A stretch of DNA of 64,000 nucleotides from Octopus vulgaris (lineage: Eukaryota): NCBI GenBank assembly GCA_951406725.2, contig OX597829.1, positions 30,938,001 through 31,002,000 on the forward strand. Reading direction: 5' to 3'. A model generated the notes under the pieces. That model had not been told where the DNA came from. It did no database searches and worked only from the letters and a program-made list of their open reading frames with translations. The stretch's first letter is position 1, and the number at the start of each line of letters is the position of its first letter. The translations under genes and the position numbers were made by a program. This document shows positions 4,750-61,352 of the stretch, piece after piece.

Positions 4750-5600
4750 GTGTCATTTACTGCAGTCTCACACTGAAGATCCCCAGTCAGTTGTTCCAAT
4801 CTTTTATTGAGTCAGAGAATCTTTCTTACAATATTGACTTCTATTATGGTCTCACACCATATGTCAGTTCACTAAAAAACGTATAGCTGTGGATTCATCT
4901 AGTCAACTGAGATAGCATATCCAGCAGAGTCTGTGTTTGTAGATGTCAGTTTCAATGCTAAGGGCATCAGTATGTAGCAGTACTTCAGACTCTAATGAAC
5001 ACCTAGAATATTGTGAAAGCATCATTGGTGGAACTGCTCTAAGATTTTAAGGAGTCTGTAATAGACAACTAAAGTTTCATAAGAGTAAGACAATATCATA
5101 AGGACACTTATATTGAATACTGAAATTTTAGAGCCTTTTTTTTTTATATTCTTTTCAGACACCAAACATGTACTTTGAGACTGGCAAAAATATCAGTTGC
5201 CTTCCTAATGCATGAAGCTATTTTCTCATGAAGCTATTTCCTCATCCAGTGAACAGTGCTGATTGATCATACTTTTCTTGCATGAAAATTTATCAATAAC
5301 TTCGAGCCTGTGTCTATTGACATAAATTGATTGTTCAATAGAGTGATTTGGGAGCCAGTTGAAACATTACCACCATTTTGTCAAGGCTAATGATTAATCC
5401 AAATGCCTTACATGGTTGCAAGATCTTATTCATAAAAGTTTGCATACACATCAGTGAATGTGCTACAAGATCACAATTGTCAGCATATAAAATATGGCAT
5501 ATTAGATTCTGAAAGAACTTGGTCTTTGTGAAAATGTACCATGTATTAAATACATATGTACATGCATATGTCCGATCGTGTTATCTATTGATACAAATGA
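4750..5600 (-). mobile_element. Possible very decayed hAT transposase fragment
   Basis: Only weak remnants such as HCSLDEEIA (like HCxAHRLxLA) and EVLLHTDA. Confidence 0.25.
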
Positions 5601-13190: not shown

Positions 13191-13632
13191 GTCATCATCA
13201 TTGTTCGCCCGTGGTCGAGACAATGGATTTTACCATGCTACGCCAGACTTCATGGTGCATCATGGCATTACAGAGGTCCTGTTGCTGGATGCCTGTATCC
13301 CTGGAGATTACATCATGGTAGGAGAGTGTGCGCCCTCTGGTATTGCGAGTAGATGGCTTCCAGAGGAGAAGAGTAGAAATTACCTCTTTTTCAGCTCTAC
13401 AACAATGTCCAGCAAACTGGACTCTCCTACCTTTCACAAGAGATGACACAGGTGGTAGTTTCCCATATATTTGTACTTTGGTTGGATGACGCTTCCATGA
13501 GAGATTTTGAGCTCTCATAAGGCAGCGAGTGTAGGTTCCATCCAACTGCCTCTCAAGCTTCTTTGATAACGTCCATTTTTCTGAGCCATATAATAGAATT
13601 GGTTCGAATTGGTTCGAAGTTTGAAGTCTCTA
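13191..13632 (-). mobile_element. 5'-truncated RTE-like LINE, same family as 737-1134
   Basis: ORF 13198..13545 is nearly identical to 746..1093 and has the TGA tail. Confidence 0.9.
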
Positions 13633-19817: not shown

Positions 19818-21105
19818 CATGTGTGTGTGAACGTGTGTGTTTATTTCCATGGTAATAAGGAAGTGGCTTATAATGTTTTCTACTTGCTGCAGTGAAACAA
19901 TTTCAACAATGATTATAACATTATTATTATTATTATTATATATTTTGTAATCCATCCAGACTCTTATCTTATTAATTTCTGAGCTATTGATTCACTTCAG
20001 TTTGATTAAGTATGACACATTTGTAAAAATCTCTTTTGACATTTTACTTAGATTGCTTTATTCTTTATACGTATTTTACTTTCATCATTTGTCCTCCGAC
20101 TCAAATGTGTTTAAAATTTAATAGGATACAGTGTTTGATTCAGCAGAGCATCACTGAGTTTTGAATTCAAATCGTGCCAAAGCTAGCTGTTTCTTTCATT
20201 CCTCCTTGGTCGACAAAAAACTGGAGTATTAAATATGTACAGGAAACCGAGTTAATGTTCTTCTAAGACATCCTAAGATAAAATGGAAGAAAAAAAAGAC
20301 CATTGTTCATCTTCTCCCACATGTTGCCATTGAGTGAAGGAGTCTCTCAGCATGTTATCACTTCTTGTAATATCTCTTCATCGTTCATACACCACAGATG
20401 AAAATCATCCAAACATTGTTATTGTGAACATCATGTGCCTAACGTGGCTTTTACAGAGTCATTCTCATTTACTACCAATCACTTGACAATCTGGATTGGG
20501 TGTGCTTTGATACAGCAGAGCATCATTGAGTTTTGAATTCAAATCCTACCTAGGCTAGCTGTTTCTTTCACCAGGAGTATCAACTGAGTACTGGAAACTC
20601 ATTTAATGTTCTTGTAAAACATCCTGAAATACAATGGAAGAAAAAAAGACCAGCATACATACATGCATACATATATACATACATACATACATGCATACAT
20701 ACATACATACATGCATACATACATACATACATGCATACATACATACATACATACATACATACATACATACATACATACATACATACATACATACAGACAC
20801 ATACATACACACACACACATACATACATACATAAAAATACATACATACATACATACATACATACATACATACATACATACATACATACATACATACATAC
20901 ATACATACATACATAAATACATACATACATACATACATACAAATATATATATATATAGTCAATTCAAATAAACAATCAGTTCAAATAAATGAATAATAAA
21001 ATTAACAGACAAGAGGAGGTGTACAAGGAATGCATTAGCTTGATGCTTGGCAAAAAGAGGCTGTTTGACATTTTGGAGCATTGCTCTTCATTGGAAAGGA
21101 AAAAG

Positions 21106-21300
21106 GGTCATGTGTTGCATATTGATAAGGAGAGCTGTGTGAAGAAGTGTCACTCTCTAACAGTTGAAGGAACCTGTGGAAGAAGGAGATCCAGGAAGAC
21201 ATGGGATGATGTGGTGAAGCATGACCTTCAAACATTAATGACGAAAGACCAAGACCTCTGGAGATATGCTGTGATTGAGAAGACCTGGCAAGTAAAATGA
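21106..21300 (+). mobile_element. RTE LINE 3' fragment
   Basis: GHVLHIDKESCVKKC..VEGTCGRRRSRKTWDDVV..DQDLWR. Copies at 27375-27570 and 29070-29328. Confidence 0.85.
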
Positions 21301-21738
21301 GATCACAGCTTAGCCTACACCAGTGTCACATAACAGGTGACATGCCATGCTTGAGGAGACCTATTGAGTCAAGTAAAATCAAAATCAAATTAAATCAAAT
21401 CACAATCAAATGGAAATTGTAGTTGTGGCTGATGCCAGTGCTGCCTGACTGGCATGCTATAAACACCATGCACGCATGGGTCATTGCCAGTACTGCCTGA
21501 CTGGCTCTCATGCTAATGGCATGTAAAAGGCACCCACTGCACTCTGAGAGTGGTTGGCATTAGGAAGGTCATTCAGCTGTAGAAACCTTGCCAGATCAGA
21601 TTGGAGCCTGGTGTAGCCTCCTGGCTTGCCAGTCCCCAGTCAAACCGTCCAACCCAGGCCAGTATAGAAAGCGGACGTTAAACGATGATGATAATGATAA
21701 TGATGATGATGATGATATATACATACATATATATATAA

Positions 21739-22433
21739 ATAATTAATTAATAAGGGTGAGAGAATTAGATACTAATTTAATAGTATATTTATTCCACACC
21801 AAGTGGCCTAGTGCTACGAGAAACCTGGATTATTATAATATTTTATAACATATTATAATATTTTCACAAAATAAATATAAGAGAGTGGTCACTATATTGA
21901 TCACTCTAGCACCAGTTAATCCAAAAGGTTTCAACCACGAAAATACATGTTTCCCATGAAAGCCAGTACGACTGTTAGCTCACACGGACAGGGCAAATAA
22001 AAAATAACAAAAATACAGATTATTTTGGGACAATTGTTTCGCTATTAATGAATTAAATGTAATATTACTTACAATAATCCATTTGTAGCTCGTCAGCCAA
22101 GACTATCTGGATGAAATCCACTCAATCACACGCCAGATTTTACCATAACGATAAATACGCGTGTGGTTCAATTGATTACATCCGACGTTATAATTCAAAT
22201 GCCCCAACCAACAGCGCGCCAAACTCTCACGGAAAACAAATACAGCATTTAGAAATAAATGCAGCATAATTATAATTAATTAATAAGGGTGAGAGAATTA
22301 GATACTAATTTAATAGTATATTTATTCCACACCAAGTGGCCTAGTGCTACGAGAAACCTGGATTATTATAATATTTTATAACATATTATAATATTTTCAC
22401 AAAATAAATATAAGAGAGTGGTCACTATATTGA
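21739..22433 (-). mobile_element. HHR-bearing retrozyme/Penelope-pLTR-like element, 1.3 tandem copies of a 533-bp unit
   Basis: 162-bp direct repeats at 21739-21900 and 22272-22433, identical by eye. Non-coding, with an intact HHR. Absent from the paralogous copies at about 26.9 and 28.6 kb. Confidence 0.85.
22017..22109 (-). ncRNA. Intact type-I hammerhead ribozyme
   Basis: Minus strand: ttgg-CTGACGA-gcta..tagc-GAAAcaattgTC-ccaa. Full consensus core, G-C closing stem II, palindromic stem III ACAATTGT, stem I extends to about 13 bp. Confidence 0.9.
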
Positions 22434-22728
22434 CACACACACACACATATATACACATACACACACACATATATATATACATATATACACATATGCATAT
22501 ATATATATATGTATATGTATATGTATATATATATACATACATACATACATACATACATACACACACACATACATACATACATACATACATACACATACAT
22601 ACATAAATACATACATACATACATACATACAGATACATACATACATACATACATACATACATACACACACACACATACATACATACATACATACACACAC
22701 ACACATACATACATAAAAATACATACAT

Positions 22729-22761
<33 letters not shown>

Positions 22762-23340
22762 TACCTACATAAATACATACATACAGATACATACATACAT
22801 ACATACACACATACATACATACACACACACATACATACATACATACATACATACATACACACACATACATACATACATACATACATACACACACACACAT
22901 ACATACATACATACATACACACACACACATACATACATACATACATACACACACACATACATACATAAATACATACATACATACATACATACATACATAC
23001 ATACATACATACATACATACATACATACATACATACATACATACATACATACATACATACATACAAATATATATATATATAGTCAATTCAAATAAACAAT
23101 CAGTTCAAATAAATGAATAATAAAATTAACAGACAAGAAGACGTGTACAAGGAATGCATTAGCTTGATGCTTGGCAAAAAGAGGGTGTTTGACATTTTGG
23201 AGCACTGCTCTTCATTGGAAAGGAAAAAGGGAAAATTTCAAAGAAGGAAAAAAAATTGCCAACAGCATGTGTGTACATATATATATATATATACATATAC
23301 AGCATGTGTGTACATATATATATATATATATATATGTATA

Positions 23341-25430: not shown

Positions 25431-26640
25431 TGTACCATTAGTCATAGACCTAATCCATTGTCTCTTGCTTTTATAACATTACCTGGTATTTATGGTACCT
25501 TTGGCATTGTCATCTCAGTTTCAAACATTTCAAATTAATCTCTTGACTGAAGATATCTTTGTCTTGCAAGGCACTGCTTCTTGCTGCGCTAACCCACAAG
25601 TCATGGTTTCCTACTTCTACCTCTAAACTTGGAGGCCTTGCAAAGTGGGGGACAGTGGATATTATCCTCTTACTTTGATTATGAACACAAATATATAGAG
25701 TATTTGTTGTGTATATTTATACAGACATATACACAAACACACACACACACATTCAGAGATACGGTGTGCTGGCAGAATCGTTAGCATGCTGGGTGAAATG
25801 CTTTGTGGTATTTCATGTCTTTACATTCTGAATACACAGGGACAATTTCTTCTCTCATTAACATTGGCTCTGTCCCAAAATTCCAATCAATCTTATTGCT
25901 AATTCTTTAAGATTTTAAACAGACCTAGAGTGAGCATTTAACAGATCATCAAAGATTTTTCCCTAAATTACATACCTGAACCCTTTTGTATTTGATATAT
26001 CAAATACTTAATTATGATATTTTCTCTTGAGCAACATTTCTTACTCAAATGTTAGCATTGTTGAGTATATCAGTCTGAGTACAGAAACAAGTAAATGCTA
26101 ATGATTTTTGAGTATGTCAGTATGAGGAGTATTGATTCTGCTGTTCTGTTATCATACAGTTCCAACTATGAGTAAACAAACAAACCAAATGTTAATGTTG
26201 CTGAGTATGTCAAAATGAAGAGTATTGGGACCACCACCACCACACGACACTAATTGTGATGAGGCAAACAATCTGTGTATTTGCTCGTGCGGTTGTGCGT
26301 ATGTGTATGTGTGCAAGTGTTTGTGCAAGCGTTTAGAATATTAAGTGATAAAACTGTGAATGACTTGACATCCTTGGAACTTGTTAACAAAGCGTGGTGC
26401 AAATTACAAACAAAATGAAAAGACAAAAAAAAAAAATTAAATAAATAAAATAAAGACTTATTGAAGAGAAAAATAAAATTGTAAATAAAAAGACGAATTC
26501 TTTTGAGGATAGTTTCAGTCATGATGTAGTATCTAAAAGAATCACATCAACAACTAATCCAACTCTTCTTCAAAATCAATAAGTGATATAATCTCTTCAT
26601 TGAAATTGAAAACAAATTTCACTCAACTGAAATATACATC

Positions 26641-26694
<54 letters not shown>

Positions 26695-27943
26695 TGTATG
26701 TATGTATGTATGTATGTATGTATGTATGTATGTATGCATGTATGTATGTATGTATGTATGTATGTATGTATGTATGTATATATATATATATACATATACA
26801 TATACATATATATGCATATGTGTATATGTGTATATATATATGTGTGTGTGTGTGTGTGTATGTATGTGTATATATGTGTGTGTGTGTGTGTATGTATGTG
26901 TATATATGTGTGTGGGTGTGTATATATATATTTATATATATATGTATGTATATATCATCATCATCATCATTATCATTATCATCATCATTTAACGTCCGCT
27001 TTCTATACTGGCCTGGGTTGGACGGTTTGACTGGGGACTGGCAAGCCAGGAGGCTACACCAGGCTCCAATCTGATCTGGCAAGGTTTCTACAGCTGAATG
27101 ACCTTCCTAATGCCAACCACTCTCAGAGTGCAGTGGGTGCTTTTTACATGCCATTAGCATGAGAGCCAGTCAGGCAGTACTGGCAATGACCCATGCATGC
27201 ATGGTGTTTATAGCATGCCAGTCAGGCAGCACTGGCATCAGCCACAACTACAATTTCCATTTGATTGTGATTTGATTTAATTTGATTTTGATTTTACTTG
27301 ACTCAATAGGTCTCCTCAAGCATGGCATGTCACCTGTTATGTGACACTGGTGTAGGCTAAGCTGTGATCTCATTTTACTTGCCAGGCCTTCTCAATCACA
27401 GCATATCTCCAGAGGTCTTGGTCTTTCGTCATTGTCTAATGTTTGAAGGTCATGCTTCACCACATCATTCCATGTCTTCCTGGATCTCCTTCTTCCACAG
27501 GTTCCTTCAACCATTAGAGAGTGACACTTCTCCACACAGCTCTCCTTATCAATATGCAACACATGACCCTTTTTCCTTTCCAATGAAGAGCAATGCTCCA
27601 AAATGTCAAACAGCCTCTTTTTGCCAAGCATCAAGCTAATGCATTCCTTGTACACCTCCTCTTGTCTGTTAATTTTATTATTCATTTATTTGAACTGATT
27701 GTTTATTTGAATTGACTATATATATATATATTATGTATGTATGTATGTATGTATTTATGTATGTATTTATGTATATATTTATGTATGTATGTATGTATGT
27801 ATGTGTGTGTGTATGTATGTATCTGTATGTATGTATTTATGTATGTATGTATGTATGTATGTATGTATGTATTTATGTATGTATGTGTGTGTGTATGTAT
27901 GTATGTATGTATGTATGTATGTATGTATGTATGTATGTATGTA

Positions 27944-27976
<33 letters not shown>

Positions 27977-28085
27977 ATGTATGTATGTGTGTGTGTATGT
28001 ATGTATGTATGTATGTATGTATGTATGTATGTATGTATGTATGTGTGTATGTATGTATGTATGTATGTATGTATTTATGTATGTA

Positions 28086-28118
<33 letters not shown>

Positions 28119-28243
28119 ATGTATGTATATATGTATGTATCTGTATGTATGTATTTATGTATGTATGTATGTGTGTATGTATGTATGTATGTATGTATGT
28201 ATGTATGTATGTATGTATCTGTATGTATGTATTTATGTATGTA

Positions 28244-28276
<33 letters not shown>

Positions 28277-29328
28277 ATGTATGTATGTATGTGTGTATGT
28301 ATGTATGTATGTATGTATGTATGTATGTATGTATGTATGTGTGTATGTATGTATGTATGTATGTATGTATGTATGTGTGTATGTATGTATGTATGTATCT
28401 GTATGTATGTATGTATTTATGTATGTATGTATATATATATAAAATGGCGGTGCCCCAGCATGGCCACAGCTCATTAGCTGAAACTGGAAAAATCAAAATC
28501 AAAAATCATATATATATATATACATATACATATACATATATATATGCATACGTGTATATATGCATATATATATGTGTGTGTGTGTGTATGTATGTGTATA
28601 TATGTGTGTGGGTGTGTATATATATATTTATATATATATGTATGTATATATCATCATCATCATCATTATCATTATCATCATCGTTTAACGTCCGCTTTCT
28701 ATACTGGCCTGGGTTGGACGGTTTGACTGGGGACTGGCAAGCCAGGAGGCTACACCAGGCTCCAATCTGATCTGGCAAGGTTTCTACAGCTGAATGACCT
28801 TCCTAATGCCAACCACTCTCAGAGTGCAGTGGGTGCTTTTTACATGCCATTAGCATGAGAGCCAGTCAGGCAGTACTGGCAATGACCCATGCATGCATGG
28901 TGCTTATTGCATGCCAGTCAGGCAGCACTGGCATCAGCCACAACTACAATTTCCATTTGATTGTGATTTGATTTGATTTGATTTTGATTTTACTTGACTC
29001 AATAGATCTCCTCAAGCATGGCATGTCACCTGTTATGTGACACTGGTGTAGGCTAAGCTGTGATCTCATTTTACTTGCCAGGCCTTCTCAATCACAGCAT
29101 ATCTCCAGAGGTCTTGGTCTTTCGTCATTGTCTAATGTTTGAAGGTCATGCTTCACCACATCATCCTATGTCTTCCTGGATCTCCTTCTTCCACAGGTTC
29201 CTTCAACTGTTAGAGAGTGACACTTCTTCACACAGCTCTCCTTATCAATATGCAACACATGACCATACCAGCGCAGTTGTCTCTCTTGCACAACATGGTT
29301 GATGCTTCATATGTCAAACATTTCTCTC
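26641..29328 (-). repeat. Segmental duplication arm B-A-B, inverted relative to 20655-23231, including a large (TATG)n at 27733-28440
   Basis: 26780-27570 matches 28510-29264, and both are reverse complements of 21106-21740. Confidence 0.9.
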
Positions 29329-29523
29329 AGGCAAAATCTCATCATAGGAGTAGAAAAGATATACCATTGGGTTATTAGGTACTGTGTTTTCAAATCATTT
29401 CAGCAGTGTTTTCAAATCATCTAGGCCGACTGCTGAGATAATTTGAAAGCAGCACCTAATAACCTAATGGTATATCTTTTCTACTCCTCTGATGAGATTT
29501 TGTCTAATACAATGATTTAATTA

Positions 29524-30232: not shown

Positions 30233-31130
30233 CGTGTGGTGTGATCAATAAGTATCTGGACTGTTTCCGTAGTAATGAAGCTAAAATATGTAGAGTGAAG
30301 CTACTTGGCACAGATTGACCTTGAACTCTGCTGTGCATGTGCACTAAGTTTTAACATACTAACTGACTTCGTTGCTTACAGCAGTACTTGGAAGGAAGGT
30401 GTGTATTGTATGATTGTCGCATTGACCATGACAGAGAAAGTTGAGCAGAGAATCTGCATCTAATTTTGCCAAAAGCTAGACAATATCTGCTCAGAGGCCT
30501 ACAGAAAGTTTTCAAAAAGATTTCATCATTCTTGACACAATCAAGGAGATCTTGTGCAACTGAAACCCGAGTGTCTTTTTGGTCAGCTGAAAGCAGTCTT
30601 GGCACAAACTTGGCAGATATGCGTCTCATACCCAAGTCTTCAAGAGATAATGGACTGAACTGAACTGTAACTAATCTGCACATCCTCTGATACCTCACAG
30701 ATGGTGATTCAACAATTTCCCCTCAGAGCTGCACACGTATCTGTGATGTTTTTCTCATTTCTGTTGGTTGTGGATCTCACAGAACGTTCATCAATATCAA
30801 CATTTTTTTTGGTCATCTTGGAAACATCTAAACTACTCATACACTTGTGTGTGGCTCATACACTCCTCTCCATACACTTTCTGCAACATTGCATAGGCTT
30901 CTGAGCAGGTATCGCCATGACAACTTTCTCTGTCAAGGTCAATGCGATGATCACACACTACACACTTTCCTTCCAAGCACTGCTGTAAACAACGGAATTG
31001 AGCTAGAATGTTAAAACTTAGTGTGCATGCACAGCAGAGTTCAAGGGTAATCTGTGCCAAGTGGCTTCACTCGGCATGATTTAGCTTCGTTACTATGGCA
31101 ACAGTCCAAATACTTATTGATCAAACCTCG
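30233..31130. mobile_element. Non-autonomous mariner derivative made of two inverted 5' ends
   Basis: About 210-bp inverted arms and TA flanks. The minus strand encodes LGMRRISAKFVPRLLSADQK. Second copy at 60450-61352. Confidence 0.9.
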
Positions 31131-31136
31131 TATGTA

Positions 31137-31183
<47 letters not shown>

Positions 31184-49899: not shown

Positions 49900-50670
49900 T
49901 TGAGTTATCCCATAAATAATGCAGTTTTTTTTATACTACTTTTACTTTTCAAAATTATACTCTCCTTCATTTTCTAAAATGCTCTTCCATCTATCTGGTA
50001 GACTAGTAAGGCCTCAAAGTTCACTTGTTCGTAATGAAAAATACTCCTCCAGTACTGTTCTGACCGCATCTACAGAATTCATATCTTTTCTGTCCAAATG
50101 ATTTTGAAGACTGTGGAATAAATGATAATCAGAGAGGGCAATGTCCGGTGAATATGATGGGTGGGGTATTGCTTCCCATTCAAACTGCCCCAGCCTTTGA
50201 AATGTTATCCTTGCTGTATATTGCTGAGCATCATCCTGATGGAAGAACCACCTTCCATCTTGAAATCAAAAATGGTCATTTTGTGATGGCACACAGGTTT
50301 CGCTGAATGGTTGAATGACCAAATCCAAGCTTCTCTGCTAGTTCCTCAACAGTTACGACGGGATTTTGTTCTATGAAGGTTTGCAGGACATCCTCGTCAA
50401 GCGCTACAGATCTTCCAGGATGAGGCTTGTCTTTCTAGGCAGTAGTTTCCTGCTTGGAATTTCTGGAACCACCGTTGACACTGGCTTATGCTTAATGTCC
50501 GATCGCTGTATGCTGCATTAATATTCCTTGCACTTTCAATTGCGTTGTTGCCTTTATTGAACTCATAAAGCAAAAGATGCGAATATGCTCCTTTGTATCT
50601 TCCATTACAGCTTTGAAAACATAATTGTTAAAATCAAACCACTGTCTTCAAAACTTGCACTAAGAATAAG
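49900..50670 (-). mobile_element. Mariner (Hsmar1/SETMAR-like) remnant, internally deleted
   Basis: TIR TTGAGTTATCCCATAAATAATGCAG. Minus-strand MEDTKEHIR..LLYEFNKGNNA, FHQDDAQ and HPSYSPDIALSDYHLF. Confidence 0.88.
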
Positions 50671-52050
50671 GTGATTTTTTTAATTTCCCACAAGAGGACA
50701 ACATAGATAAAGGACAATACAATCTGATTGGGGTCAGATGGCCAAATGGATATTACATTAAGATGAAATTAAAAATTCACAAAATAAAATATAAATAAAT
50801 TGAATGATAGGACAGACCAGAAGACATTATGGATAGAGTGGGGATGCAGGTTCAATTCAGACCCCACGAGCCCCACCTTGCCACTGATACCTGAGATATG
50901 TCCTGCATCGCATTCATGAAGTTACATCCACGTGCCATATCCGTGCTACATTCTTTCATCGATTTTCAAGCATTTTCACAGTCTGGTATTTTCTCTCTAG
51001 CCCTATCTTCCTTTCAAGGTGCAAGGTGAAATAATTCACCAACTCAGGGCCAGAGATGAAAATGCTTGACTTTAAATTCTTTCAGCCTCATCTTCCAAAT
51101 CACCTCTCTCGCAATTGCTACTACAGTGAGAAAACAATTCTTATCTTCTTTCGAAAGGAAATTAGGTGGGTCAATTTTTACTATAGACTCAGTTGATAGC
51201 TGTACTCTTCCAGTACTTGACAACAGTTGTTCAGCATAAGCCCACATGTCTGACACCTCCGAACACTGAACAGTAGCATGCAGGACAGTTTCCCTATCCC
51301 GCTCACATCTTGGACAGGTCAAAGGACCGCGGCCTCCATGCCTTGTGAGCTTGTCCCAAACAAGTAAGGCTTCTCGGTAACATTGCCATGCCAGAGACTT
51401 CTGAAAGTTGTCCAGGGTCTTCGGTCCGAAAGTATGTCGGAACAGACTGGCCAGCTGATTATTGTCGAGACCTAGGATTTCCTCTGAGGTATCGTCACAT
51501 TCCGTCTCTACAAGCTCTCTATAAAAGAATGTGGTGGAACCTCCACTGCAGGCATTGCCTGAGCAACAGAATAGCAGGAGAGCCTTGCGACACTCCATAA
51601 ACCACGTACCCAACTTCGATCTTCGATAGAACCAGGTTTTCTGTCCACCAAAACTAGTGAACTTGGGAAACATCCATTTTGTCAGCGGAGACCACACACA
51701 TTCACCATCCTGGTAGAGCCACAGATGCCTCAACCTCAACGCATGTCTGCGCATCAATAACCAAGGCATCCCTAGCCCATCCTTTAACAGTTATTGGCAG
51801 CAAACAAAGCGTCTCACAAGCGGTTTCGAGCCCTTCCACAAGAAGTGGAAGAGCTGTCTTTCCAGCTTGATCAACCACAAATCAGGGCAAGGAACGATGG
51901 TTAGGCGGTATGTGATGACTGATGCGATGAACACATTGGCTACCTCTTCCCTTCCTTTCAGGGATAGCCACTGCCAAGACCAGGTCTTGACTATGTGGGT
52001 CACCCTGCTCGATACCTCGGCCCAATAGTTATGGAGCCATTGCAGATTTC
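50671..52050 (-). mobile_element. L1/Tx1-clade LINE 3' fragment with zf-RVT region
   Basis: ORF 51791..52075 (WSWQWLSLKGR..FHFLWKG) and ORF 51044..51769 (CPRCERDRETVLHATVQC). Confidence 0.9.
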
Positions 52051-56728: not shown

Positions 56729-58555
56729 TACAATAAGTTGACAAAAATTAACTGCACTTTTGCAAAAACTTTCTTTATGAAGGCTGTGTATGCTAAAAGG
56801 TGTCACTCTTGTAGTTACATAACTGAGATTTAATCATGATCACTCCACTTTTCTATCTTGTGTTATTGGAGATATACTTACAAAAGACTGGAAATGAATG
56901 ATACTGCTTGTATGACAGTGACACTAATTGTACATCATCATGCAATTAGAAGTTAAAGGTAGAGTACCCCTCCACACACACACACACATCAAAGTTATAC
57001 TGGGACGGGATTTTCTATGTCTGGATACTCTACTTATCACCAGCCCCTATTTGTTTACAAGTCAGGTAATCTGCTAGTATATCAAACAATGACTCTTGTA
57101 GTTACATAACTGAGATTTGATCATGATCACTCCACTTTTCTATCTTGTGTTACAGAGTAAACTTAGCTGCTCCACTGGCAGTGTGCACCAAGGAAGAACA
57201 GAGATCAGTGATCTGTTGTCTCTGGTCTGAAGGTGTGTCAGAGACTGAAATTCATCACAGACTTTCAGTACAATATGAAAACAGAGCTTTAGTGAGTAAA
57301 AGTATATATGAGTGGATCGAGAAGTTTAAAAATGGGCAGACAAGTGTGAAGTATGAAGAAGGAGCAGGATGCTCCAAATTTCTACCACTGATGTGAAGAT
57401 TCTTATTTATTTACTGCCCACAAGGAGCTACACACAGAGGGGACAAACAAGGACAGACAAACGGATTAAGTTGATGATATCAACCCCAGTGCATAACTGA
57501 TACTTATTTAATCAACCCCGAAAGGATGAAAGGCAAAGTTGACCTCGGTGGAATTTGAACTCAGAATGTAGCGGCAGACGAAATACCACTAAGCATTTCG
57601 TCCGGCGTGCTAACATTTCTTTTCTGCCAGCTTGCCGCCTTCACTGATGTGAAGATTCAACAAGCTCCATTGACAGTTCTGGCAAGCCAATGAGTGACGA
57701 TCAAGGAGGTGGTATGTTCTTTGCAAATTAGTTGTGGTTTTGCATATGAAATCATCCAAGAAAAGCTTTGCTCCCATAAAGTCCATGTGAGATGGGTACC
57801 AAGAGACCCTACTGAAGCATATAAGTGCAGTTGTGTGGAGATCTGTCAATACTGACTTGACCACTACAGTGGCAAACGTGAAGCTTTTTTGGAGAGAATA
57901 GTCACAGTAGAAGAGATATAGGTCTATCACTTTTAGCCAGAATCTGAAAGGAAGTGTGAAGTGGAAACACCTGGAGTCATCAGCGAAAAAGAAATTCAAG
58001 ACTTGACTTAATGCAGAAAAAGTGACACTAACCATTTTTACAGGTGTATAAGGGCCTGTGGTGGAACGTTACCTGGAAAAGGGGTCTACAGTCACAGTGT
58101 AGTTTGTAGTGAAATACTCTCCAACAAACTGGAACCAGTAATTTACACCAAACACTGAGGTTTATTGTCAAAGCAAGTGTTAATATTGCACAACGATGCA
58201 CATCCACATATGGCTGCCCACACCATTGAAACTATTGAAATATTGGGTTTTGAGTTGCTGGAATACTCTGCATTCAGTTCAGATCTCCCCACCTCTGACT
58301 ATCATCTCTTTGGGATGTTCAAACATCATTTACAAGGTTGATTTGTTATGGAAGAAGATATGCAAGAAGTAGTGCATAAATGACTGCATGACCAACTGAA
58401 AACCTTCAATGGAATTAGCAAGTTTATGGACCATTGAAAGAAGTGCATAAAAAAGCAAGGAGACTATGCCATTGCCATAAAGTGATGCAATTATTCAACC
58501 CATGCTTTTGCTTTAATAAATTACAGAAACAAGAGTGCGCATACTTTTTAGCCTG
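56729..58555 (+). mobile_element. Near full-length decayed mariner with two insertions
   Basis: CTKEEQRSVI..IYEWIEKFKNGQTSV, WVPR, LHNDAHPH and YSAFSSDLPTSDYHLFG remnants. Confidence 0.88.
57403..57641 (-). mobile_element. SINE family B inserted in the mariner, 17-bp TSD
   Basis: CACTGATGTGAAGATTC at 57386-57402 and 57642-57658. Confidence 0.93.
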
Positions 58556-60322: not shown

Positions 60323-60437
<115 letters not shown>

Positions 60438-60449
60438 AGTATATATATA

Positions 60450-61352
60450 CGTGGTCTGATAAATAATTATCCAGACTGTTGCCATAGTAATGAAACTAAA
60501 GCATGCAGAGTGAAGCCACTTGGCAAAGATTGACCATGAACTCTGCTGTGCATGCACACTAATTTTGACATTTAAGCTTACTTCTGCTGTTTACAGCAGT
60601 ACTTGGAAAGAAGGTGTGTAGCATGTGATCAATGCTTTGACAATGACAGAGCAAATTTTGCCAAAAGCTTGGTGATACTTGCCCAGAGGCCTATGCAGAG
60701 TTTTCAAAGAGTTTTTATCATTCTCAACACAATCAAGGAGATCTTGTACAACTGAAACCCAAGTGTCCATTTGATCAGCTGAAAGTAGTTTTGGCACAAA
60801 CTTGGCAGATACGCATCTCACACACAAATCTTCAGTGATAATGGACTGAACTGTAACTAATCTGATAACTTATGGATGGTGATTCAATGATTTCCCCTCA
60901 CAGCTGCATGCAGATCTGCAATTTTTTTCTCATTTCTCTTGGTTGAGGGTCTCTCAGAATGTTTGTCAATATCGACATTTTTTTGTCTAGCTTGACAATG
61001 TCTGAACCACTCATACATTTGTGTGCAGCTCATACATTCCTCTCCATACCCTTTCTACAACTCTGCATCAGACTCTGTCATGGTCAATGCGACAGTCACA
61101 TGCTACATACCTTTCTTCCAAGCACTGCTGTAAACAATGGAAGTGAGCTGGAACTTTAAAACATAGTGTGCATGCACAACAGAATTTAAGGTCAATGTTT
61201 GCCAAGAGGCTTCACGCTGCATGCTTTAACTTTGCTTCTATGGGTTTTGAGTTGCTGGAATACTCTGCATTCAGTTCAGATCTCCCCACCTCTGACTATA
61301 ATCTCTTTGGGATGTTCAAACATCAGTCTAAATACTTATTGATCATACCTTA
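60450..61352. mobile_element. Second copy of the two-5'-end mariner derivative
   Basis: Colinear with 30233-31130. Carries an 85-bp insertion in the right arm. Confidence 0.9.

Follow-up and report, generated by a model that had tools for sequence, protein, structure and literature searches.

A very young 533-bp-unit insert with a type I hammerhead motif in Octopus vulgaris, probably a retrozyme moved by a Penelope-like enzyme

In a 64-kb stretch of the Octopus vulgaris genome, which we analysed as a whole and refer to as the window, we examined a 695-bp insert (21739-22433, minus strand) that we take, at a probability of about 0.78, for a non-autonomous retroelement copy of very recent origin, namely an animal non-LTR retrozyme, probably moved by a Penelope-like reverse transcriptase with a GIY-YIG endonuclease. 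The element is real, well preserved and young, and its kind is already known. Judged by sequence criteria, it is likely an animal non-LTR retrozyme or non-autonomous Penelope-like element (PLE), for which self-cleavage and circular RNA are predictions. We found no prior description of this family in the literature; supplements or Repbase/Dfam may list one, and the family may be undescribed for the host group.

The insert is composed of one full 533-bp unit (21739-22271, minus strand) and, upstream of it, a 5′-truncated copy of 162 bp, an arrangement known as a pseudo-LTR (pLTR) layout. Self-comparison of the window showed that 21739-21900 and 22272-22433 are the same over exactly 162 identical bases at an offset of 533, as an earlier note on this DNA had described in terms of terminal direct repeats with that period, and offsets of 532 and 534 gave zero matching runs of 8 bases or longer. 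The low end of the 3′ repeat copy (21739-21900, minus strand) is the 3′ end of the element, with ATA (21739-21741) common to element and target; the 5′ copy (22272-22433, minus strand), being the truncated second unit, abuts (CA)n. The unit has 33% G+C, is strongly self-paired, and is non-coding, as had been claimed, the longest stop-free frames reaching 63 codons on the plus strand and 58 on the minus strand when the unit is treated as a circle. Its ends read ATAA..TTGA / TCAA..TTAT, and inspection revealed no TG..CA ends, primer-binding site (PBS) or polypurine tract (PPT) beside the repeats. Exact 23- and 24-nt patterns from the unit had zero matches in metagenome_contigs, exact patterns likewise had zero matches in viral_contigs, and there were no further copies in the 64-kb window, which contains 0 ambiguous bases (N). 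The host DNA is rich in microsatellites, as expected of an invertebrate, and the short repeats beside the insert are of octopus type.

Comparison with paralogous host sequence dates the insertion relative to a local duplication. The host segment to the left of the insert (21107-21741, plus strand) has inverted duplicates at 26929-27567 and 28625-29264, and the three copies differ at 8, 8 and 10 of approximately 635-639 aligned bases, the two insert-free paralogs being 98.4-98.7% identical to the host segment of the filled site. At both empty sites (26889-26929 and 28587-28625, minus strand), the left flank continues insert-free after 26929 and 28625, respectively, and runs into (TA)n(CA)n where the filled site has the insert. 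Both the existence of duplicated host sites without the insert and an insertion after a recent duplication, as previously proposed, are borne out by these alignments, in which one of three copies is filled, and a single gain after duplication is the simplest reading. Of the few tens of bp of microsatellite said to be missing here, the first paralog accounts for as many as 40 target bases absent from the filled site, but the amount lost is ambiguous. The loss relative to the first is about 40 nt, a figure that rests on a 28-nt exact match at offset 40, versus about 8 nt relative to the second, in which case the last 8 element bases, at the end of the 5′ repeat copy on the plus strand, resemble the target's TATATATA that they replaced, with agreement at 6/8 positions. 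No target-site duplication (TSD) was found at the insert junctions in comparison with either empty paralog.

These host copies are part of a short tandem array of host segment, microsatellite and 165-bp segment (20654-23231), which has an inverted duplicate (26638-29264) about 3.4 kb away with 98-100% identity in the non-microsatellite parts. The second paralog also harbors an extra short non-microsatellite piece within its microsatellite (28440-28507) that is missing from the other two copies and is a second small independent change.

The minus strand of the insert contains a type I hammerhead motif (22016-22109) arranged as helix I, CUGACGA (22096-22090), helix II, GAAA (22040-22037), helix III and GUC (22031-22029). 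Helix I closes around the cut site, which defines type I, and comprises 4 bp (UUGG/CCAA), a mismatched stretch and 5 bp more. Helix II (22041-22089, minus strand) is long, with 4 bp, a 2x2 loop, 9 bp, a small loop, 5 bp and a 6-nt loop; its basal pair G10.1-C11.1 is retained, and variants found in the family fall in its distal part (22064, 22072-22075). Helix III (22030-22037, minus strand) has 2 bp and a tetraloop, and all 8 bases form a perfect palindrome, by which two hammerheads could pair with each other at a computed -6.4 kcal/mol. Placement of the core puts the predicted self-cleavage site after GUC (22028-22029, minus strand), at the very position suggested before, between 22029 and 22028, and this site, where cleavage is predicted from the sequence, is intact in the DNA. 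All type I features are present (core CUGANGA, GAAA, NUH, three helices, G10.1-C11.1), and a type I descriptor requiring the core, helix III and 4 bp each of helices I and II found this site alone in the 64-kb window, with 0 hits in 20,000 dinucleotide-shuffled units (both strands) and 0 matches in 100 shuffles of the window. The Rfam hammerhead models gave no match at the gathering score or at E-values up to 10, for which the long helix II may be the cause. Canonical hammerheads are described in PMC4209133 with a 6-bp helix I and a 4-bp helix II, and the canonical periphery of 6-bp helix I, 4-bp helix II and loop 1-loop 2 contact was not found here. Thus, the description of this hammerhead as fully canonical holds for the core but not for the periphery, given the missing Rfam match, the 4+9+5 bp of helix II and the 4 bp of helix I followed by mismatches.

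In energy folding, the best monomer fold has the core paired with the cut site, and adopting the active one instead costs 5.8-5.9 kcal/mol, whether computed for the 100-nt fragment or for the linear or circular whole unit. A double hammerhead formed through the palindrome was computed at -51.6 kcal/mol, compared with -55.4 kcal/mol for the best dimer and -40.4 kcal/mol for two active monomers. The calculation takes no account of magnesium or of tertiary contacts and had no control in the form of a known ribozyme. By these computed energies, the active monomer fold would be disfavoured and the dimer favoured. The earlier note's "perfect" hammerhead, and its status as the best candidate for an active ribozyme, are therefore not supported, in view of the missing Rfam match, the long helix II and an active monomer fold lying about 5.8 kcal/mol above the ensemble. 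Published behavior is mixed: a short palindromic helix III is linked to dimer activity in PMC4209133; according to the results in PMC7229834, coral and mussel hammerheads cleave as monomers, as did invertebrate hammerheads with a 2-bp helix III, and axolotl ones need dimers; and 8 of 9 Xenopus retrozyme dimers are reported in 10.64898/2026.07.22.740005 without cleavage in vitro.

The hammerhead is enclosed in a predicted long stem domain (21948-22238, minus strand) with a 17-bp closing helix (22238-22222 / 21948-21964). Folding of the unit relative to shuffles gave z-scores of -7.6 to -7.8 on the minus strand and -6.5 on the plus strand, with -0.8/-0.2 for the flank control. We took the minus strand as the transcribed one because the hammerhead fixes it, which the fold score (-7.8 vs -6.5) does not. 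Since the 695-bp copy has one hammerhead, located outside the repeats, two cuts in its own transcript cannot yield a 533-nt monomer, and the copy cannot by itself give rise to a 533-nt circle. Unless it is extended or pairs in trans, it probably leads to no circles at all.

To place the insert within a family, we turned to public sequencing runs, where sampled words of the unit were found at 0.74-1.00 in 20 of 24 listed runs (9 studies, 2 organisms). The positive runs comprised 19 from one organism (A) and 1 from another (B), and the other four runs, three of them from organism A, had next to none of the words; none of the listed runs is on record as RNA, and one, X1, is RNA by guess only. Contigs from 4 of the 20 positive runs (X1, X5, X13 and X16) were mapped to a one-unit stretch (21820-22352) in which both element ends are internal, and summed contig depths were not taken as copy numbers. 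The two large DNA-like runs yielded 2,558 variant contigs (X5, about 80% of the run read) and 1,148 (X16, organism B), with identities from above 99% to under 90%. This is a dispersed family with subfamilies, in agreement with the multi-copy family that had been anticipated.

The contigs are informative about the ends of the element. X13 produced 2 records, a 566-nt closed loop with 3 substitutions and 3 inserted bases at depth 37.7, and a 51-nt record that joins (TA)n to 22271 at depth 20.8; no 5′ junction occurred in this run. If X13 is whole-genome DNA, the ratio of loop to junction depth would put the average insertion at no more than about 1.8 units. Loose ends in (TA)n at 22271 occur in X16 too, with 6 contigs against 1 in X13. 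Near 21900, neither X13 nor the 13 listed loose-end rows, out of 146, showed one; any 3′ junctions of X5 would be among the other 133 rows. The 3′ end thus appears fixed and linked to (TA)n, and the 5′ end appears variable, the variability being deduced from absence. Circular permutation among copies, another earlier suggestion, is at odds with the joining of the 3′ end to (TA)n at 22271 in both X13 and X16.

For X1, we obtained a single 563-nt record (533 plus a 30-nt overlap) with 0 differences from this copy, a depth of 56 and no flank. The unit therefore closes as a loop in 2 of the 4 examined runs, with contigs bridging 22271/22272 in X1 and X13. The flank-free loop of X1, a run that is RNA by guess, fits circular or multimeric RNA but does not prove it, and a loop in a contig graph is also expected from tandem DNA or terminally redundant linear RNA. 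Moreover, the position at which the X1 loop opens (21901-21930) adjoins the polymorphic base 21900; this points to a pruned branch, and the absence of flanks there proves little. The joint from 22352 back to 21820 (back 533) was rejected as a sign of tandem or circular structure, as it falls inside the 162-bp repeat and is expected from any copy. In X5, four of the six loose-end rows shown (21904, 21928, 22018 and 22316) share one palindromic linker, which we take to be a proximity-ligation adapter, and the odd joints of this run were set aside because of it.

Sites varying at 3% or more numbered 11 among those listed, and none was in the hammerhead core, a result of little power with the core occupying 15 of 533 bases and about 0.3 sites expected. 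Within the ribozyme, variants lay either distally in helix II or where helix I is mismatched. Across the 11 sites, 4 keep a pair, 4 break one and 3 are unpaired, with a mean effect not clearly below that of random changes; at pairs with probability above 0.9, the pair was kept in 4 of 5 cases. Together, these sites are weak evidence for conservation of the structure. Related sequences part from the unit at two positions, 21989, seen in 5 X5 contigs and 3 X16 contigs, and 22120, seen in 4 X16 contigs, and these branches, as leads only, are candidates for related families or for the repeat of an autonomous partner. A 64-base stretch (22028-22092) with the hammerhead core is absent from one X16 contig (depth 42, shorter side 28 bases), and one edge of the gap lies exactly on the predicted cut site, given a 1-base ambiguity. 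This contig could reflect cleavage followed by trimming and religation, a hairpin skip or a diverged relative, and weighs little.

The affinities of the element lie with two overlapping groups. Like the animal non-LTR retrozymes (Cervera & de la Pena 2020, PMC7229834; Li, Clavereau & Pollet 2026, 10.64898/2026.07.22.740005), as characterised in those papers, it has a non-coding unit with G+C below 50%, one type I hammerhead per unit, self-paired RNA, no LTR, PBS or PPT signals, head-to-tail units (the X1 and X13 junctions) and multiple copies (the X5 and X16 contigs). The 533-nt unit is longer than the 150-450 bp given in PMC7229834 but within the 51-972 bp of 10.64898/2026.07.22.740005, and this locus, with 1.3 units and one hammerhead, falls below the two-unit definition of an "active" retrozyme in the latter. 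Published animal retrozymes have larger TSDs when these are present (PMC7229834), whereas there is none here; helix II far exceeds the canonical 4 bp; and for the fixed, (TA)n-joined 3′ end we found no counterpart in the descriptions of animal retrozymes in PMC7229834 and 10.64898/2026.07.22.740005.

With Penelope-like elements and their non-autonomous pLTR-bearing derivatives (e.g. MRC1 of Chlamydomonas; PMC8557442, PMC8969392, PMC11167929), the insert has in common a full copy plus a 5′-truncated tandem copy, a (TA)n target within AT-rich microsatellite, no discernible TSD, a hammerhead with palindromic helix III and, as far as can be deduced here, a copying start inside the RNA. It also has the fixed 3′ end and truncated 5′ end of a PLE derivative, where 5′ variability follows from absence in 13 of 146 rows and in the 2 records of X13. 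In contrast to the Penelope-like elements described in these papers, the insert has no reverse transcriptase (RT) or GIY-YIG ORF, its hammerhead lies outside the duplicated part, and a 30-40-bp tail or inverted copy was not seen at the insert. The extra base between A9 and G10.1, given as typical of PLE minimal hammerheads in PMC4209133, is missing as well. As Naiads, the (TA)n specialists, are described without canonical hammerheads, a Neptune- or Poseidon-type partner seems more likely.

No autonomous partner was found, a Pfam search in 140 of 170 candidate frames of the window having given no Penelope-type or GIY-YIG domain. An element whose ends are long terminal inverted repeats is present in two 76%-identical copies (30236-31167 and 60414-61243), with a weak Mos1-type HTH match; these are probably Tc1/mariner derivatives, and more Mos1 HTH matches occur at 50400-50627 and 57127-57393. 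At 29329-29505 there is a MITE-like, 177-bp imperfect palindrome with 82% self-complementarity. A 248-codon frame with a zf-RVT domain (Pfam; 51044-51790, minus strand) is the C-terminal part of an L1/Tx1-type LINE. A weak RVT_1 match (Pfam) lies at 5338-5580, and two similar frames of 141-143 codons (746-1171 and 13198-13629, minus strand) resemble the end of a LINE ORF and had no Pfam match.

The mechanism that we favor would begin with minus-strand transcription of other, multi-unit loci, whose hammerheads, probably acting as dimers via the palindromic helix III, would cut the transcript into 533-nt monomers that a host ligase would then circularise. A Penelope-type protein would nick (TA)n DNA and carry out target-primed reverse transcription, starting at a fixed internal site of the RNA (21739/22272, about 290 nt from the cut site), perhaps aided by a 3-4-nt AUA/UAUA match. 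Synthesis would cross the cut site scarless, complete one round and copy 162 bases more, and the cDNA would be joined to the far side of the target with the loss of 8-40 target bases. Reverse transcription running past one unit, as first put forward in the earlier note, is supported by the 1.3-mer layout with its exact 162-bp repeat. Several published observations are in keeping with this scheme: a full copy with a 5′-truncated tandem copy is by definition a pseudo-LTR (PMC8969392, PMC8557442); a (TA)n bias and missing TSDs are reported for PLEs (PMC8557442; PMC8969392); a purified PLE protein cuts AT-rich DNA and initiates inside its own RNA (PMC11167929); animal retrozymes yield circRNAs (PMC7229834); and retrozymes are presented as related to PLE pLTRs in 10.64898/2026.07.22.740005. 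Recently active Penelope families are reported in Octopus vulgaris itself, in a paper whose main text leaves ribozymes unmentioned (PMC13282606).

The nature of the template is the part of this scheme in which alternatives weigh most. Because the cut site is intact in the DNA, the template would have been continuous there, being either a circle or an uncut tandem transcript; granted a PLE-driven insertion, we lean slightly toward the circle and regard the uncut transcript as a lesser but substantial prospect. The purified PLE protein mentioned above worked in vitro mainly on uncut RNA and did not require hammerhead cleavage (PMC11167929), which weakens the circle step. One could accordingly dispense with circular RNA and see in the insert an internally deleted Penelope-like element, its 1.3-mer produced from an uncut, terminally redundant linear RNA or by a template jump, with partial tandems transcribed repeat to repeat and the hammerhead weak or a passenger. 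We think this possible but would not bet on it. It accords with the in vitro use of unprocessed RNA, where hammerhead mutants inserted equally well (PMC11167929), with an active monomer fold disfavoured by about 5.8 kcal/mol, with relatives that share the hammerhead region and diverge at 21989 and 22120, much as a pLTR is common to longer elements, and with the X1 loop, which redundant linear RNA would also give. It accords less well with the strong self-pairing of the whole unit, which is like that of retrozyme circles in PMC7229834, with the monomer cleavage reported there for 2-bp helix III, and with a complete core hit by 0 of the 11 listed variant sites, the last point having little power.

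Other machineries account for less of the evidence than a Penelope-like enzyme does. A hammerhead-bearing, SINE-like element mobilised by a LINE (e.g. of the RTE or R4 clade) is unlikely: LINE remnants are common in the window (zf-RVT at 51044-51790, weak RVT_1 at 5338-5580) and PMC7229834 leaves LINEs open as partners, but the insert has neither a TSD nor a poly(A) or repeat tail of its own, and its partial-tandem layout and target loss match the pattern published for PLEs (PMC8557442, PMC8969392). A small LTR-type element, either a TRIM or a plant-type LTR retrozyme with 162-bp LTRs and a Gypsy-like integrase, is exceedingly improbable despite the identical terminal direct repeats. Plant LTR retrozymes are also non-coding inserts with terminal direct repeats and a hammerhead, but are described with type III hammerheads in both LTRs, a PBS, a PPT and 4-bp TSDs (PMC7229834, 10.64898/2026.07.22.740005). 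Here, the hammerhead is type I and outside the repeats, TG..CA ends, PBS, PPT, a 4-6-bp TSD and a hammerhead in both LTRs are all missing, and head-to-tail closure occurs in X1 and X13, the latter with a 3′ junction and without a 5′ one; an LTR retrozyme or TRIM is largely refuted.

It is also very improbable that assembly or polishing of a collapsed repeat family produced the 1.3-mer layout or the perfect identity as an artefact. When reads map to many copies, consensus polishing can remove changes private to one of them, and the unit is here identical to the dominant X1 loop. Against this, both junctions are sharp, the left one fits the empty site base for base, the window has no N, and contigs of both X1 and X13 run across 22271/22272. 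The identity figure might be distorted by an artefact, the element itself hardly.

The Discussion of PMC7229834 still treats the genome re-entry of animal retrozymes as a hypothesis, and the mechanism of retrozyme mobilisation remains uncharacterised according to 10.64898/2026.07.22.740005. Unlike tandem arrays, the copy in Octopus vulgaris offers both junctions, an empty site on the same haplotype, a fixed (TA)n-joined 3′ end and near-zero age, which together make the ideas of a Penelope partner and a circular template directly testable. The insert may be usable as a presence/absence marker and as a test case for retrozyme integration. More tentatively, and with rather more doubt than belief on our part, this may be a currently mobile family whose 533-nt circular RNA is abundant and serves a Penelope-type enzyme directly as template. 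The enzyme would start copying into (TA)n from one fixed internal site, pass over the sealed ribozyme site and leave partial tandems that can be dated. Such a reading draws on the adjacent empty paralog, the identical loop in an RNA-like run and the deletion edge at the predicted cut site. If true, it would provide the first natural system for reading the circle-to-genome step of a retrozyme and its PLE partner from the junctions, and that step could be rebuilt in vitro.
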